Below are positions 6,859 through 24,800 of a stretch of DNA of 60,000 nt, one piece after another (the stretch's first letter is position 1; each line of letters begins with the position of its first letter). The position numbers were made by a program, and so were the translations under genes. Under the pieces are notes generated by a model that did no database searches, was not told the origin of the DNA, and worked only from the letters and a program-made list of their open reading frames with translations. Source of the stretch: Botryllus schlosseri (lineage: Eukaryota); contig CM119372.1 of the NCBI GenBank assembly GCA_051294905.1, positions 18,354,001 to 18,414,000 of the forward strand, given 5' to 3'.

Positions 6859-9800
6859 CTAATGACGGAAATATTGAAATAGAATAGTGTATCGGGAATG
6901 AAACCGAAACGTTAACGAAATTGATTAGGACAGTCACACTGCAGTGTCCTGCCTGTGGACCAAGCAAATCTCACGGCTCACTGCGTGACTGCAATCGGGT
7001 TACGTCATTCTTTTCATTTGACAAAAAGCATTTTAGGGCACTATTTGACAGTGTTGGGATCAAAAGTCACTACCTTCGAGTCACGAGTCATCTCCAGTCA
7101 TTGCACATTTTGACTCGAGTCAAGTCAAGTCAGTTGATTTCCGAACGTGACTCGAGTCAAGTCGAGTCAAGTCAAGTCACGATTCAAGTCAAATTTTCGA
7201 AATATGAGTGGTGATGCAAAGTCATTACATTTTGCTAACTGGGTGGAAGACGGATTGTTTGGCCATTTATTTTGAATCAAATAACGAATACAAAGTTAAA
7301 TATACATGCAAAAAGGCATTGATCGCTCACGCACGCTTAGAACTTATAATAAAATGCGTGAGTAACTGCGTATAGCTACATGCTACAGTCTGTTATTATC
7401 AAACAAAATAGTGGATCGAATATGAAGCTTCGAGAAGTCGAAACAAATTGATATGGTACACTACCCATCTACACACCCGCGAGAATATATTAACGCATAA
7501 ACTATGTTCGTTCAATTTCATTTATACAAGAGGGTTGGTAAAGGTGAGCAATGCGTAATGTAAGCACTGAGACGTCTAAGAAACATATATACGTTGCTAT
7601 TAGATTAATCTACCACTACGACAACGTAAGCTGTGATTGTTTCGTTCGCGGTCAGTGAATGACTGGTTGCCCTCACAAGTGACATCGACGTACCGCGAAC
7701 AATCCCAACATACATAAGATAGGGTGATTTAATCGTTACCGTTTACTTGATGACTTGAAATTGACTCGTACATTTTGCTTCGAGTCACGAGTCAATTGAC
7801 ATTTTTGAAGCACCGAGTCAAGTCAAGTCAACTCATTTTTGCAAAGTGACTCGAGTCAAGTCAAGTCATATGAAAAAGTTGACTCGAGTGTGACTAGAGT
7901 CAAGTCATGACTAAAGTCATCCCAACACTGCTATTTGGACTGGCTTGCTGAGCGCAAATGTGGAAAATCGGTATCAATCGAAAGCTACCGCGGTACTGAT
8001 TTCAAAAATAAATAAAAATTATTCTGCTCATGGTCATTGGTATTGTGACGCAAGTAGTGTAGTCGATCGCTCTGGGGGTGGCAGGGGTTCTTATGGGCGG
8101 GGTGGTGAGGTGCCTGGAAACTCGTATTGGTGATGGTACCCTTTTGACCCCCCCTTCCGCTCGTGATGTGCCATGTGTTCTTATGGGATCTCTGGTGATG
8201 GTACCCTTTCGGGTATAGGCTGCGTCGGTGATGTGCCATGAAAACTCGTGTTGGTGATGGTACCCTTTTGACCCCCCCCCCTTCCGCTCGTGATGTGCCA
8301 TGTGTTCTTATGGGATCTCTGGTGATGGTACCCTTTCGGGTATAGGCTGCGTCGGTGATGTGCCATGAAAACTCGTGTTGGCATATCGTACTTTTGGACC
8401 CCCCTATCGCTCGCACATCGTAATGTGTTCTTATGGGCGCGCTCACACATCGTACTTTCAAGTATAGGCTGCGGCGGCGACTCGTATTGAAAACTCGTGT
8501 TGGTATATCGTACTTTCGGGTGTAGGCATCTCTCGCACATCGTACTTTCGCATGTCGTACTTTCGCGTATAGGCTGTGTTGGTGATTCGCTATGTGTTCT
8601 TATGGTTGCGTCGGCATATCGTACTTTCGGGTGTAGGCATCTCTCGCACATCGTACTTTCGCATGCCGTACTTTCGCGTATAGATTGTGTTGGTGACTCG
8701 CCATGTGTTCTTATGGGTGCGGTCGTGATGCGCACTTTCAACCATCTCTCGCGTGGTGTTGAATAGTCACCAACAATAACCGCACAAACGGAAACGTGGC
8801 TTGTTGTGAGGATTAAGCAGTGCGACCTATATTTCGAATGACCTGCGCGCTGAATTGTTTCCCGGCCAGTCGCTACTATCGATTATTACACTATTCCATT
8901 CAGTGCGAAATAGTTTGTTAAATCTAGGAATCACTTCCAAGGTAATATTTTGGTAATTAGTTTACCGCAGAGCCGGCGTAGACGGCGATTCGAATATCAA
9001 CAATAACCGCGTTCACAAACTAACACTTCAAAAATGTGTGAAATAGTTTGCAAAACCCCGCAATCGCTGAACCCCGCAATCGCTGACAAGATAACACATC
9101 AGGCATAGCCATCTCTCGTGGTGTGGATTTACAGAGGTAGGAATCACGCACAAGTAATATTTTGGTAATTAGTTTGTCACGGAGCCGGCGTAGACGGCGA
9201 TTCGGTTACCAACAATCAGTAAGTCGCGAAACTGGATTTCACTGGTAAGATTTAATAAGTAACGAATAACAGAGCCATCGCAGACGGTGATTCGAAAACC
9301 AACAATTTGACACTTTCTGGTGGTCGCTATATGTTTTGACACTCCGGAATAGTGGTGGACTTTAGTTGTATGATAAGAATCATGTGAATATACAAGTAAT
9401 GTGTCAATTTGTCAACTTGAAATGAAACTTACTACACAAACCGAGTTGATTCGTATTTGAATGTGTTAATTCGGTACAATTCTAATTATTTTGAGAAATC
9501 TTTTTAACGTGATCTTGTGAATCGTACGTAACCTGAATATTACCGACACCGACTTTCAGCCGAATCGAATTATTCACACATTCCACACCGCTGTTTCACA
9601 CCTATAGAATCAATGCCAACTAGTTGTATGAAAATCAAGAATCACAAGTATGCGCATATAATAATTGTATTCATTATTGAGAAATCAAACCCTTAACAAA
9701 AACTCACATCTTATCACTTGTCAACTCTATCATGAAAATCCTCGAACCCGTATTATTAAGAATGTTATAGTACGGCGTCAGAAATCCACTCGCGAGATGT

Positions 9801-21800: not shown

Positions 21801-24800
21801 GACGCAGCCTATACCCGAAAGGGTACCATCACCAGAGATCCCATAAGAACACATGGCACATCACGAGCGGAAGGGGGGGGGGGTCAAAAGGGTACCATCA
21901 CCAACACGAGTTTTCATGGCACATCACCGACGCAGCCTATACCCGAAAGGGTACCATCACCAGAGATCCCATAAGAACACATGGCACATCACGAGCGGAA
22001 GGGGGGGTCAAAAGGGTACCATCACCAACACGAGTTTCCAGGCACCTCACCACCCCGCCCATAAGAACCCCTGCCACCCCCAGAGCGATCGACTACACTA
22101 CTGACGCAACAAGGCCGTCTGAGACAAGATGCCGCAGCTAGGCAGCAAGTGAGGAGCGGCGCAAACCGCAAGCGTATTGACCATTGTTGCGCCGTCTACG
22201 CCGGCTCTGCGGTAAACTAATTACCAAAATATTACCTTGGAAGTGATTCCTAGATTTAACAAACTATTTCGCACTGAATGGAATAGTGTAATAATCGATA
22301 GTAGCGACTGGCCGGGAAACAATTCAGCGCGCAGGTCATTCGAAATATAGGTCGCACTGCTTAATCCTCACAACAAGCCACGTTTCCGTTTGTGCGGTTA
22401 TTGTTGGTGACTATTCAACACCACGCGAGAGATGGTTGAAAGTGCGCATCACGACCGCACCCATAAGAACACATGGCGAGTCACCAACACAATCTATACG
22501 CGAAAGTACGGCATGCGAAAGTACGATGTGCGAGAGATGCCTACACCCGAAAGTACGATATGCCGACGCAACCATAAGAACACATAGCGAATCACCAACA
22601 CAGCCTATACGCGAAAGTACGACATGCGAAAGTACGATGTGCGAGAGATGCCTACACCCGAAAGTACGATATACCAACACGAGTTTTCAATACGAGTCGC
22701 CGCCGCAGCCTATACTTGAAAGTACGATGTGTGAGCGCGCCCATAAGAACACATTACGATGTGCGAGCGATAGGGGGGTCCAAAAGTACGATATGCCAAC
22801 ACGAGTTTTCATGGCACATCACCGACGCAGCCTATACCCGAAAGGGTACCATCACCAGAGATCCCATAAGAACACATGGCACATCACGAGCGGAAGGGGG
22901 GGGGTCAAAAGGGTACCATCACCAACACGAGTTTTCATGGCACATCACCGACGCAGCCTATACCCGAAAGGGTACCATCACCAGAGATCCCATAAGAACA
23001 CATGGCACATCACGAGCGGAAGGGGGGGTCAAAAGGGTACCATCACCAACACGAGTTTCCAGGCACCTCACCACCCCGCCCATAAGAACCCCTGCCACCC
23101 CCAGAGCGATCGACTACACTACTGACGCAACAAGGCCGTCTGAGACAAGATGCCGCAGCTAGGCAGCAAGTGAGGAGCGGCGCAAACCGCAAGCGTATTG
23201 ACCATTGTTGCGCAAGCGATTGAGCATTAGCACTTTCGCTGCGCGCTTGCTATGAAAAAAATGGCTCAAAGCTCCAGTTTCTCACCCCTGGCCCCCTATG
23301 GTATATACCTTATATGATAATATATACCGGGAATATAGCTACATTATCCTGTAAAAGTTAAATGGTGACTTACCCAGCGCAGATATGATCGTTGGTCACT
23401 GTTACTGAGTAGGTGGAGTACCAGCTATTGCAGGTAGACAAGCCGATAATATCTACCTCCGCGTAACGAATTTGAGCAAACGATGTTCCCGTTCCTGTTA
23501 CAGACACATGCAAGGAAATTCTATTATACAGTAGTAAAATTTCGAGGTTATGCAAATAAATTAGGAAGCGTTCGGAAGTTTTTTACTATCCACAATTTAT
23601 TTTATAGCAGCACTGTGAACTAATTTCCTTTAATGGAATTGCTATATTCGCACGCCAGCAGCCTCGGTTCGATAAGTCTATCTGCATACAATGGAGAGTA
23701 ACGAATGAAAGTGAGCATATCCACATACCTCTTCGAACACGAATGAAATCAGTTTATTTTCATTGGTACCATCGCAATAATTTTAATGGTGGAGTCGATA
23801 AGTAACCACAAGAATATCGACTAAGGAAGCATACACACACACTCAGCACCGTCAATTTTTTGTCCAGCCAATAGCGTAGCGCCCAACGCCTGGCGGAAAA
23901 GTCATGTAACCTGTCGATCGAGAATCCAGCAATAACCAAAAACGAGTTGAGCAAATTATAAATGTATTAGGCAACATACACTTTTTTCGAAGTAACCATT
24001 TACTGCAGATCGACAGATGTTGTCATTTACACCATGCTAATGAGCCTGTCCCGAAATTACAATTCATGAACAGCATGTCATGTATAGTGCGACGATTTAT
24101 TATCATTCTCATCAATTGGACAAACAAGCGGTGCTGATGACATCAGAGTAGAAAAGGAGTCTGGAATTCAGAACCCTGAAAAACGTCATAACATAATTGT
24201 GCCCAGAACTATAAGCACACGGATATGTAGAACTTCTATATATCCATGCTATGAGCAATGAGCATAGTCTTCCGTCCAATTCCACTGAACACGATGGTCG
24301 TCCATCATCACACGGCATGTATAAGATTGATGATAGGTAGCGATTTGGAAATTTGTGAAGACTCAAAGAGAATCTACGCACGCAAAAGGTTCCCAAGATG
24401 AAGAATTGCATCGGCTATGACTGTGCTCCATTATATTCAGCGAGTCAGCTTGATCGTAAAATTAAATCTAACGCTCATTGCCACGGCAGCAGAATTCTTT
24501 TAGACGACTGCCGGTTGCGTACCTATGAATCTAGTAAATTTGCCGCGGTGACACCTTTTTAGTTTCTATAACTCAATAAAAAAGAAACCCTAAACACTTT
24601 CAGCGTTAGAGAGGAGACTTGGTCGTGGGACATGGTCTGACATTAGCTTTATATTCGCCGGATCTGCTGTGTTTGCAGTTCCAATACGTCACACAAAAGA
24701 ACCGCGAAGAAATAAGCAGCAACTTCCACTAGTCTTTGTTATGTTCTTGATCTTGTTCGATTTGAACAGCGATTTGCCTTGCGAAAGGCAAAGGGCGTGG

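Follow-up and report, generated by a model that had tools for sequence, protein, structure and literature searches.

A nearly palindromic element in the genome of Botryllus schlosseri, probably a non-autonomous Maverick, and the lineage to which it belongs

What is a 14,050-bp mobile element that is palindromic over almost its whole length, and what keeps its two arms alike? The element occupies positions 8053-22102 of the window, by which we mean the whole stretch of 60,000 nucleotides that was analysed. A previous, sequence-only reading had taken it for a non-autonomous, defective-interfering (snap-back-like) Maverick. We propose, with a probability of roughly 70%, that it belongs to a non-autonomous palindromic Maverick lineage which is moved in trans and whose arms are kept alike by hairpin or fold-back replication.

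Structure of the element and its insertion site

The limits of the element and of its parts (Table 1) were set by self-BLAST and a repeat finder. Positions 8053-13924 match 22102-16227 (99.80% over 5,876 bp) and 13925-14649 match 16285-15561 (99.31% over 725 bp), the alignment falling into two pieces because a 59-bp tandem duplication is present in the left arm only. The inverted arms make up 93% of the element. Both the near-identical arms of ~6.6 and ~6.5 kb around a 911-bp spacer (99.3-99.8% alike) and the AGTAGT...ACTACT termini (left AGTAGTGTAGTCGATCG..., right ...CGATCGACTACACTACT) with a GACGCA target-site duplication on either side agree with what had been noticed before.

Table 1. Features of the element and its surroundings, in window coordinates
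Feature	Position	Strand	Basis or remark
Uninterrupted target GACGCA (empty site)	4580-4585	.	Neighbouring copy of local ~4.8-kb duplication
Left target-site duplication GACGCA	8047-8052	.	Sequence
Left arm, 6,597 bp, non-coding	8053-14649	+	Frame list, sister comparison
Terminal and subterminal region common with coding Maverick C, from the AGTAGT terminus	8053-8642	+	Presumed origin and integrase-binding end
127-bp tandem repeats, subterminal	8104-8381		Left arm
111-bp tandem repeats, subterminal	8505-8721		Left arm
41-bp tandem array, 8.4 copies	13332-13679	.	Mirror copy 16472-16819
59-bp tandem duplication, left arm only	13866-13983	.	Chief inter-arm difference
Unique centre ("spacer"), 911 bp	14650-15560	.	
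91-codon reading frame and stop codon	14712-14987	-	Only coding potential found within the element
Right arm, 6,542 bp, reverse complement of left arm	15561-22102	-	Self-BLAST, repeat finder
Right target-site duplication GACGCA	22103-22108	.	Sequence
Tandem repeat of the final 934 bp of the element (end 23123) and of GACGCA (23124-23129)	22190-23129	.	

The element had also been called a true recent insertion whose target survives at ~4576-4591. The sequence TTGTGACGCAACAAGG at 4576-4591 holds a single GACGCA, and in a search of the 495-Mb genome the 430 bp around it (~4470-4900) were found elsewhere only as the two halves flanking the element. This site is thus genuinely empty, paralogous or allelic, rather than one more copy of a repeat, which confirms a recent insertion with its empty site preserved.

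Two neighbouring duplications had gone unmentioned in the sequence-only reading. The empty and filled sites lie within a local duplication of ~4.8 kb (2254-4586 = 5721-8053, 99.6%; 4579-5366 = 23123-23910, 99.5%, by self-BLAST), which is either real or the product of two haplotypes fused by the assembler. The end of the element is itself repeated in tandem (21167-22192 = 22190-23213, 99.8%), the repeat covering the last 934 bp, the target duplication and 81 bp of flank, with CGC microhomology at the junction (22189/22190); this copy is either a genuine duplication at the locus or an error of the assembly. The palindrome and these duplications are known from one assembly, and public contigs of 100-500 bp bridge neither. 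Elsewhere in the window, an rve match at 36795-39989 is part of an LTR retrotransposon that has no relation to the element.

Maverick ends and a coding relative

The terminal 200 bp produced 148 matches in the genome, many of them as plus/minus pairs 13-21 kb apart. All 11 fully read elements (that of the window and ten fetched ones) possess AGTAGT ends and perfect, mutually different 6-bp duplications, and so does a twelfth, element K, which belongs to another subfamily (18,358 bp). Six base pairs is the typical target duplication of Polintons/Mavericks (PMC3014272), for which one published account gives 5-8 bp (PMC10748475).

The same genome contains a coding Maverick, element C, of 17,411 bp with inverted ends of 756 bp. 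It encodes a protein-primed polymerase (PF03175, 29.1 bits, cut-off 25.8), an rve integrase (58.8 bits, cut-off 32.6) and a chromodomain (35.8 bits), and shows weak matches to A32-like ATPases. Its polymerase frame is interrupted relative to other copies (1,082 vs ~1,300 codons); 57 matches to the Maverick polymerase at 80-100% identity were obtained with 43 of 356 genome candidates scored. The first 301 bp of C match 15 of 30 end loci from base 1 (88.5-97.0%), reaching 95-97% identity at the ends of sister elements of ~13-14 kb; among these loci is the pair C9:648385-661590, in which the 91-codon frame recurs at the midpoint. The terminus of the window element is 97% identical to C over bases 38-200 and 80-86% over the first 320-360 bp. 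Its first 37 bases are unlike those of C, the sole coding element compared, so that the exact helper is not pinned to C.

The genome comparison that the sequence-only reading had suggested for the terminal 200 bp thus returned both of the things sought, namely other copies with distinct 6-bp duplications and a coding Maverick with related ends, and the terminal sequence held in common with the latter substantiates the assignment of the ends and duplication to the Polinton/Maverick type. That reading had named 8-bp duplications in other copies, or ends shared with a non-Polinton transposase, as findings that would speak against it; all 12 elements have 6-bp duplications, and the terminal sequence is instead common to an element with pPolB and rve.

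Apart from its initial ~0.6 kb and a single 216-bp patch, the window arm does not match element C, and none of the genes of C is included; in tblastx the element as a whole matches C only over the terminal ~0.6 kb. Frames, profile search and the comparison with C disclosed no polymerase, integrase, ATPase, protease or capsid gene in the element: none of its 17 frames of at least 80 codons matched a Pfam family above cut-off, and no open frame in arm and centre exceeds 233 codons, as the earlier failure to see such genes had implied. Compared with sister elements, the left arm is no more similar in any one of the three frames than in the others. With no Maverick genes of its own, the element would have to be moved in trans, and the 6-bp duplication, typical of the Maverick integrase, likewise points to replication and insertion in trans. 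It has the AG...CT ends and 6-bp duplication of the Polintons/Mavericks and lacks the polymerase and rve integrase of an autonomous one; the terminus common with a coding Maverick, the copies at many sites with their own duplications and the empty site are those of a non-autonomous derivative. Judged by these sequence features, it is very probably a non-autonomous Maverick-type element.

In its 5'-AG...CT-3' ends, AGT repeats, subterminal repeats and 6-bp duplication the element resembles the Polintons/Mavericks (polintoviruses). Non-autonomous Polintons are listed in repeat libraries. As in non-autonomous DNA transposons, with a MITE-like logic, the ends and duplication of a helper are combined with an unrelated interior and a high copy number; unlike MITE-like elements, it is near helper length and palindromic throughout, its arms evolve in concert, and it has one conserved gene of its own. 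Its size falls inside the 13-25 kb given in one published account, whereas its inverted ends of 6.6 kb each compare with 100-1,500 bp in that account (PMC10748475) and with ~2 kb in butterfly Mavericks as described in a preprint (10.1101/2025.02.07.637071). It also differs from Polintons/Mavericks in being without polymerase, integrase, ATPase, protease and capsid genes while possessing a small gene which C does not have.

A family of palindromes and its centre

Long inverted arms were present in eight of the ten other fetched elements with these ends (3.2-6.9 kb each), and three further end pairs were inverted throughout the 1.7 kb compared (99.8%). Between 68 and 84% of the window arm aligns to seven other arms, and the 41-bp tandem array is kept as an array in sister elements. 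The two arms of one element are 98.5-99.95% identical whereas arms of different elements are only 70-74% identical, which shows that the arms evolve in concert. The window element is a member of a large, old, diversified and high-copy palindromic lineage.

This family bears on the proposal that one end of an autonomous Maverick genome gave rise to a single snap-back copy, defective-interfering in kind, which was integrated by chance. Such a copy would have Maverick ends, a 6-bp duplication, near-genome length and no Maverick genes, as observed; however, the sharing with C stops at the ~0.6 kb and the 216-bp patch and takes in none of its genes, eight of ten other elements are palindromes with homologous arms 26-30% diverged, and C lacks the centre gene, which is conserved. 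We regard this explanation, which was that of the sequence-only reading, as very unlikely. Classification as a snap-back or defective-interfering genome was rejected, the arms not being colinear with C (the sole coding element compared), and so was a fresh origin from a helper, given that sister arms and centres are 26-36% diverged and form a long-lived lineage of their own.

The same architecture, with exact AGTAGT ends and matching 6-bp duplications, recurs at at least nine independent loci on seven contigs. Palindromic long reads made in the library are a known artefact, and chimeric reads of this kind or a mis-join might have created the inverted arms; the sister element B contains a 100-N gap, odd duplications adjoin the window element and the short public contigs bridge nothing. 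Against an assembly artefact, the arm sequence differs from locus to locus and the centre is conserved at most of them, and neither target duplications nor an empty site would arise in this way, which leaves such an origin scarcely credible.

A search with the 911-bp centre gave 1,114 first-look candidates in the genome, and 39 scored places besides the window copy are 95-98% identical to it. Homologous centres occur in six of the eight other elements compared (A, B, D, E, G and J), at 64-74% identity, the same degree as the arms; those of elements F and I are unrelated. The 91-codon frame is intact in five of nine centres examined, and its dN/dS of 0.23-0.29 (at dS 0.8-1.0 relative to the window copy) indicates that it is under purifying selection. 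Genome-wide there are 1,197 first-look candidates for the frame, and 144 of the 150 scored have no stop. The element is therefore not geneless, nor is its "spacer" empty.

The 91-residue product matched no Pfam family even at E values up to 10. Among 1.84 billion representatives, a profile search picked out one WD40 protein, matched at E 3.7e-7 over 7 stretches (hhalign probability 46%), and one TPR protein (E 4.6e-7), and the AlphaFold model is all-beta with a pLDDT of only 38. Perhaps the protein helps the element to exploit its helper, a suggestion which we make with low confidence.

Might the centre unit, that is, the frame with 0.1-0.8 kb of flanking inverted sequence, be an independent small mobile element which resides inside palindromes and elsewhere, its gene being foreign to them? 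The 95-98% identity at 39 other scored places among the 1,114 candidates would fit, as would an arm interior with one relative at 96% and the others at no more than 91%, and there are a few recurring positions where the homology to the window is lost. The break points nevertheless vary, the six sister centres have diverged like their arms, as if co-inherited, copies standing free, with ends and a duplication of their own, were not seen, and the copies examined are either central or symmetric in the arms of larger AGTAGT-ended palindromes. We consider this improbable and treat the gene as part of the palindromes.

Re-formation and likeness of the arms

Several members depart from the common plan. 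The palindrome edge of element J cuts the 91-codon frame at residue 70, element B is a nested palindrome, and in element K, which lacks a spacer, each arm contains one centre unit; many copies of the frame are inverted pairs 5-14 kb apart. Together with the new centres of F and I, the shifted edge, nested and spacer-less forms point to repeated fold-back formation. Differences confined to one arm remain in place (59 bp in the window element, a 2.4-kb insertion in K and 361 bp in G, with unequal arms), and the perfect duplications in 12/12 elements suggest that most copies are young.

These observations also weigh upon the view that chromosomal gene conversion, as in sex-chromosome palindromes, keeps the arms alike and that their shape goes back to one ancestral accident. 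The contrast of identities within and between elements calls for homogenisation wherever it takes place, and gene conversion could contribute to it; a window-like centre in six of eight other centres is likewise expected from a single ancestor. But the novel centres and edges indicate palindromes made again and again, the large one-arm differences persist, and the copies appear mostly young. As the whole explanation it seems to us unlikely.

For a palindromic lineage renewed by replication, we suggest the following scheme. A linear molecule with one good terminus would fold back at its broken or 3' end and be copied back. The resulting palindrome would have the same replication origin and the same integrase end on both sides, and could once more undergo protein-primed replication and integrate. 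At each replication round the displaced single strand would snap into a long hairpin, an extreme "panhandle", within which differences between the arms would be repaired or re-copied; the arms would consequently be near-identical at insertion and diverge only later. For a fold-back origin plus hairpin-based homogenisation, the odds appear to us evenly balanced. The replication steps of this scheme are drawn by analogy only. To our knowledge, Maverick/Polinton replication has never been directly observed; a published model, itself a proposal, has Polintons passing through a single strand with paired ends (PMC4046053). One account treats the panhandle as the accepted model for displaced strands and the restoration of end homology in protein-primed replicons, while stating that it "lacks direct evidence" even for PRD1 and adenovirus (PMC11886824).

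Family lengths form a narrow cluster of 13.3-15.1 kb, with F at only 7.6 kb and K and B at 18-21 kb. A length constraint, possibly through packaging into helper capsids, is a tentative and rather doubtful explanation; the clustering could simply be inherited.

A parallel is found in adenovirus, for which incomplete genomes, mini-chromosomes with large inverted repeats and panhandle end repair were reportedly described by Hay, Stow and McDougall in 1984, Daniell in 1976 and Wang et al. in 1991. There too a protein-primed linear replicon left with one end regains two by intrastrand pairing and copy-back, producing palindromes, and the panhandle restores homology between the ends. The adenovirus forms, however, are laboratory or infection by-products consisting of helper sequence, whereas the lineage described here is heritable, integrated and diversified, and its arms are not helper genes. 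The rDNA mini-chromosome of Tetrahymena is a fold-back-primed palindrome. In it and in the fold-back inversions reported at breaks in yeast (PMC7467729, PMC10622511), a free-end hairpin is replicated into a large palindrome with a short non-palindromic centre, repeated rounds being nested, but both concern changes to the host's own chromosomes, and neither is a mobile element bounded by transposon ends and flanked by target duplications. The Foldback (FB) elements of Drosophila share very long, tandem-repeat-rich inverted arms, a centre that is small or missing, and a low coding capacity. They belong to a different superfamily without Maverick ends or a link to a protein-primed polymerase, and their target duplication, of 9 bp, is different too. 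In the full-text literature searched, whose scope did not extend to Repbase, Dfam and the founding papers of 2006-2007, palindromic non-autonomous Mavericks are not described.

Overall, the window element behaves more like a virus satellite than a deletion derivative. It is conceivable, though we would put it below an even chance, that such "satellite Mavericks" are previously undescribed hyperparasites, with a single small, conserved gene between two long arms that are non-coding, rebuilt by fold-back from a single terminus, their arms re-made or corrected each round via a genome-length hairpin and their ~14 kb held by travel in helper capsids, and that they number around a thousand copies. 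If true, they would be a natural, heritable counterpart of the adenovirus mini-chromosomes, and genomic evidence for protein-primed strand displacement with a panhandle stage in Mavericks. With arms 26-30% diverged between members, nearly identical within, and new centres re-formed, the family would be the genomic footprint of a single-strand stage with paired ends, making Maverick replication testable through arm divergence against insertion age and through snap-back DNA. The family further indicates that Mavericks can host successful parasites with a private gene, and that such elements can form a visible share of an animal genome, here with ~1,200 candidate copies of the centre gene; in standard repeat annotation these palindromes would probably be mistaken for inverted-repeat pairs.

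The palindromic element and its insertion site

The palindrome at window 8053–22102 is a real feature. A repeat finder and BLAST of the window against itself both paired the left arm, 8053–13924, with 22102–16227 at 99.80% identity over 5,876 bp, and a second piece, 13925–14649, with 16285–15561 at 99.31% over 725 bp; the arm alignment is split in two solely by a 59-bp tandem duplication in the left arm (13866–13983). With arms of 6,597 and 6,542 bp and a unique centre of 911 bp (14650–15560), the element measures 14,050 bp, in agreement with the inverted arms of ~6.6 and ~6.5 kb around a 911-bp spacer described in the sequence-only reading. 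Its first bases are AGTAGTGTAGTCGATCG, its last bases are their exact complement, and GACGCA is present on either side, so that the termini and the 6-bp target-site duplication (TSD) proposed there also stand.

The uncut sequence TTGTGACGCAACAAGG at window 4576–4591 represents the empty target site. When window 4300–4900 was searched against the whole genome (495.5 Mb, 219 contigs), approximately 430 bp around this target were found only there and, as two halves, flanking the element. The empty site is therefore locus-specific, and the survival of an uninterrupted target, suggested from the sequence, was confirmed. Window 4300–4470 is the end of a very abundant repeat of ~165 bp which stops near 4465, ~115 bp upstream of the insertion site, and which gave 3,860 first-look candidates in the genome at 92–95% identity.

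The empty and filled sites lie in two adjoining copies of a ~4.8-kb unit (window 534–8053 and 23123–23910), in which 2254–4586 corresponds to 5721–8053 (99.6%) and 4579–5366 to 23123–23910 (99.5%); the second copy lacks 667–1167 and 1440–2253, representing two indels between the copies. A tandem duplication of recent date would explain this arrangement, as would a heterozygous insertion whose two haplotypes the assembler has joined. At the right end, a tandem repeat (21167–22192 and 22190–23213, 99.8%) comprises the final 934 bp of the element together with the TSD and 81 bp of flank. As a result, the element end recurs at 23123 and GACGCA occurs a third time, at 23124–23129; the repeat junction (22189/22190) shows a CGC microhomology. 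This 1.02-kb copy may be a real slippage event beside the palindrome or an assembly error. The public DNA data on the element region are Logan contigs of 100–500 bp only, which bridge no junction and no palindrome. Their summed word depth is 1.8–44 thousand over the element versus about 17–21 in unique flank, which agrees with a high-copy family, depth not being a copy number. One RNA run, of which 6% was read, showed next to nothing on the element and is evidence for neither side. Three runs labelled as other organisms contain 0.37–0.39 of the sampled words of window 21900–23300.

Several other features were found in the neighbourhood. A 546-bp sequence in the element flank occurs once in one orientation and twice inverted (638–1183, 2295–2840 and 5762–6307; 99%), and is probably another transposon since word depth there is very high in the public runs. 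An apparently young LTR retrotransposon occupies window 36616–40731, its 151-bp direct repeats (36616–36766 and 40581–40731) being 100% identical; it contains a 1,065-codon open frame on the minus strand (36795–39989) with RT, RNase H and rve integrase domains, and an upstream 234-codon frame with DUF7041. A 368-codon open frame, also on the minus strand (25233–26336), has no Pfam match.

A palindromic family with Maverick-type ends

A genome search with the terminal 200 bp of the window element, in which 40 of 1,723 first-look candidates were scored, gave at least 148 matches. Many of these form +/- pairs 13–21 kb apart, and ten such pairs, elements A to J, were fetched in full. An AGTAGT start and a perfect 6-bp TSD, different each time, were found in all 11 fully read elements and in a twelfth, K, from another subfamily. 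As the sequence-only reading had anticipated, the search recovered other copies with differing TSDs together with a coding Maverick, element C, sharing the ends; the two outcomes it had named against Maverick-type ends, 8-bp TSDs and ends shared with another transposase, were both absent from the 12 elements. The ranges given for Polintons/Mavericks in PMC10748475 are 13–25 kb, inverted ends of 100–1,500 bp and TSDs of 5–8 bp, and PMC3014272 describes a 6-bp TSD and a 584-bp end as typical.

Element C (17,411 bp) possesses 756-bp inverted ends and long frames on one strand. Scanning of 15 frames against Pfam revealed a PF03175 protein-primed polymerase (29.1 bits, cut-off 25.8), an rve integrase (58.8 bits, cut-off 32.6) and a chromodomain (35.8 bits), with matches to A32-type packaging ATPases below threshold. 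The nearest Atlas clusters to the polymerase are animal PF03175 proteins. Its frame is broken in C (1,082 codons versus about 1,300 in other copies). The polymerase has at least 57 matches in the genome at 80–100% identity (43 of 356 candidates scored), many with long open frames, and the genome therefore holds a large, young Maverick population. Element C is 97% identical to the window terminus over bases 38–200 and 80–86% over the first 320–360 bp, and at 15 of 30 end loci its first 301 bp align from base 1 onwards, with 88.5–97.0% identity.

The absence of Polinton genes from the window element was upheld. Its arm and centre contain no frame longer than 233 codons, the longest ones crossing tandem repeats; none of its 17 frames of at least 80 codons reached a Pfam cut-off; and blastn and tblastx matched it to C in two places only, the initial ~0.6 kb and a 216-bp patch. 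Strictly speaking, it is no Polinton, since tests for polymerase and integrase were negative. Rfam gave no matches on window 7500–23500 at E values up to 0.1. The arms were also considered as coding sequence, and this was rejected: in tblastx comparison with sister arms no frame is more similar than the other two, so that the similarity is at the DNA level only.

Long palindromes were found in eight of the ten fetched elements, the other two being coding C and rearranged H. In total, the census of centres, lengths and helpers comprises 12 fully read elements and three pairs of ends; the latter are inverted over the full 1.7 kb compared, at 99.8%. In E, identity over the terminal 402 bp is 95.8%.

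Palindromic elements recovered through the shared ends, and the conserved reading frame of the window element
Feature	Window position	Strand	Length (bp)	Arms (bp)	Arm identity (%)	Centre (bp) or location
A			13,631	6,343 / 6,340	99.67	948
B			21,523	outer, 6,662	99.955	nested inner palindrome, 100-N gap
D			14,001	6,521 / 6,546	99.3–99.5	934
E			15,105	6,566 / 6,600	99.09	1,939
F			7,565	3,430 / 3,224	99.3–99.5	911
G			14,394	6,932 / 6,571	98.5–99.3	891
I			14,001	6,834 / 6,835	99.85	332
J			13,336	6,291 / 6,285	99.73	760
91-codon frame	14715–14987, stop 14712–14714	minus				window element centre

Between elements, 68–84% of the window arm aligns with the seven other arms compared, at only 70–74% identity, and the centres of A, B, D, E, G and J are 64–74% identical to that of the window element. 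The nearest relatives of the window element are at 96% (one place), 91% and 86% over the arm interior, and at 91–98% in segment L052. Arms that differ by about one quarter of their bases between elements and by 0.05–1.5% within them must evolve in concert. The sequence-only reading had taken the window element for a defective-interfering, snap-back-like Maverick; a snap-back copy of a helper genome was rejected, because the arms are not colinear with C, the one coding element compared.

A small gene in the centre

The element lacks Maverick genes, but its centre does contain a small gene under selection, a conserved 91-codon frame. It is intact in five of nine centres examined (the window element, B, D, E and G); A has a full-length match, though split in the frame listing, and in J the palindrome edge truncates it at residue 70. 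It is absent from the centres of F and I, from rearranged H and from coding C. The window copy shows 72–75% nucleotide and 64–67% protein identity to the four other intact copies, without a gap, and Nei-Gojobori dN/dS values of 0.23–0.29 at dS 0.8–1.0; the E–G pair gave 1.35, on only 3 synonymous differences. A six-frame genome search yielded 1,197 first-look candidates, of which 150 were scored (75–100% identity), 144 having no stop and six having one. All listed copies are more than 50 kb from any polymerase gene listed.

The 91-residue protein belongs to no Pfam family. A search of 5.8 billion proteins revealed only five close relatives (90–93 residues, from contigs of at most about 1 kb). 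Searches of viral contigs and of metagenome contigs gave no relatives, and the ESM Atlas gave no usable match. A profile search of 1.84 billion representatives added only a WD40 protein (E 3.7e-7, seven stretches) and a TPR protein; hhalign gave 46% probability for the WD40 match. The AlphaFold2 model, from a 5-row alignment, is all-beta and, at pLDDT 37.9, unreliable. A WD40-like origin is thus no more than a lead.

Formation and upkeep of the palindromes

The 911-bp centre, with 0.1–0.8 kb of flanks, is far commoner and more uniform than the arms: 1,114 candidates were found, and 39 scored places besides the window copy are 95–98% identical. This unit often occurs as inverted pairs 5–14 kb apart. 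One of these pairs, element K (C2:38319406–38337763; segments L055+L053+L051+L054), is an 18,358-bp palindrome with zero spacer, 99.3% identical over 12.5 kb through its centre. Its ends are AGTAGTGTAGTTGGATT and share their first 11 terminal bases with those of the window element; the TSD is GTGGTA. The centre unit with the 91-codon frame is present once per arm, one arm alone carries a 2.4-kb insertion, and outside the unit the arms have no match to the window family. Element B (C2:28391982–28413504; L033–L035) contains the centre unit twice as well as an inverted inner pair of 3.75 kb, its inner structure being uncertain because of the assembly gap. The centres of F and I are unrelated to that of the window element, the edge of J is shifted, and contig 14 contains a nested set of four copies. 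Together with nested B and with K, these cases show that palindromes have been repeatedly re-made from truncated forms, at new fold-back points and always with Maverick-type termini.

In protein-primed strand-displacement replication the displaced strand would pair its inverted ends. For adenovirus and PRD1, such a panhandle is the usual model, also of how end homology is restored, although direct evidence for it is still lacking (PMC11886824); a Polinton replication model includes a single-stranded stage with paired ends (PMC4046053). We propose that a molecule short of one terminus would form a fold-back at its free 3' end, and that copying from there to the protein-capped end would restore two identical origins and integrase sites. 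The regain of ends by fold-back and copy-back was reportedly described by Hay, Stow and McDougall in 1984 in work on an adenovirus mini-chromosome.

The displaced strand of a palindrome would be a genome-length hairpin, in which arm mismatches might be corrected or one arm re-copied; the arms would be identical at integration and diverge afterwards. Indels in place in one arm only, of 59 bp in the window element, 2.4 kb in K and 361 bp in G, fit this later drift. We put the probability of a fold-back origin with correction in a replicative hairpin, followed by drift after integration, at about 0.5. The main rival explanation of the likeness of the arms, that chromosomal gene conversion maintains it, appears improbable to us.

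Seven fully read centre-type elements measure 13,336–15,105 bp, and five more pairs fall in the same range by end spacing. The sequence-divergent D and I (L038+L039 and L047+L048) share a length of exactly 14,001 bp despite centres of 934 versus 332 bp, arm length appearing to compensate for centre length. Possibly, though we regard this as doubtful, the palindromic elements are under a length constraint such as packaging; F, K and B fall outside the range.

The longest Maverick ends met in the literature searched, about 2 kb and gene-bearing, are those reported from butterflies (preprint 10.1101/2025.02.07.637071). In the full-text literature searched, no description of palindromic or near-fully inverted non-autonomous Mavericks was found; an earlier entry in a repeat database may exist. 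Judged by their gene content, the palindromic elements would depend on functions supplied in trans. Functionally, the window element would compare with a Maverick satellite or non-autonomous partner, and with a natural counterpart of the adenovirus mini-chromosome.
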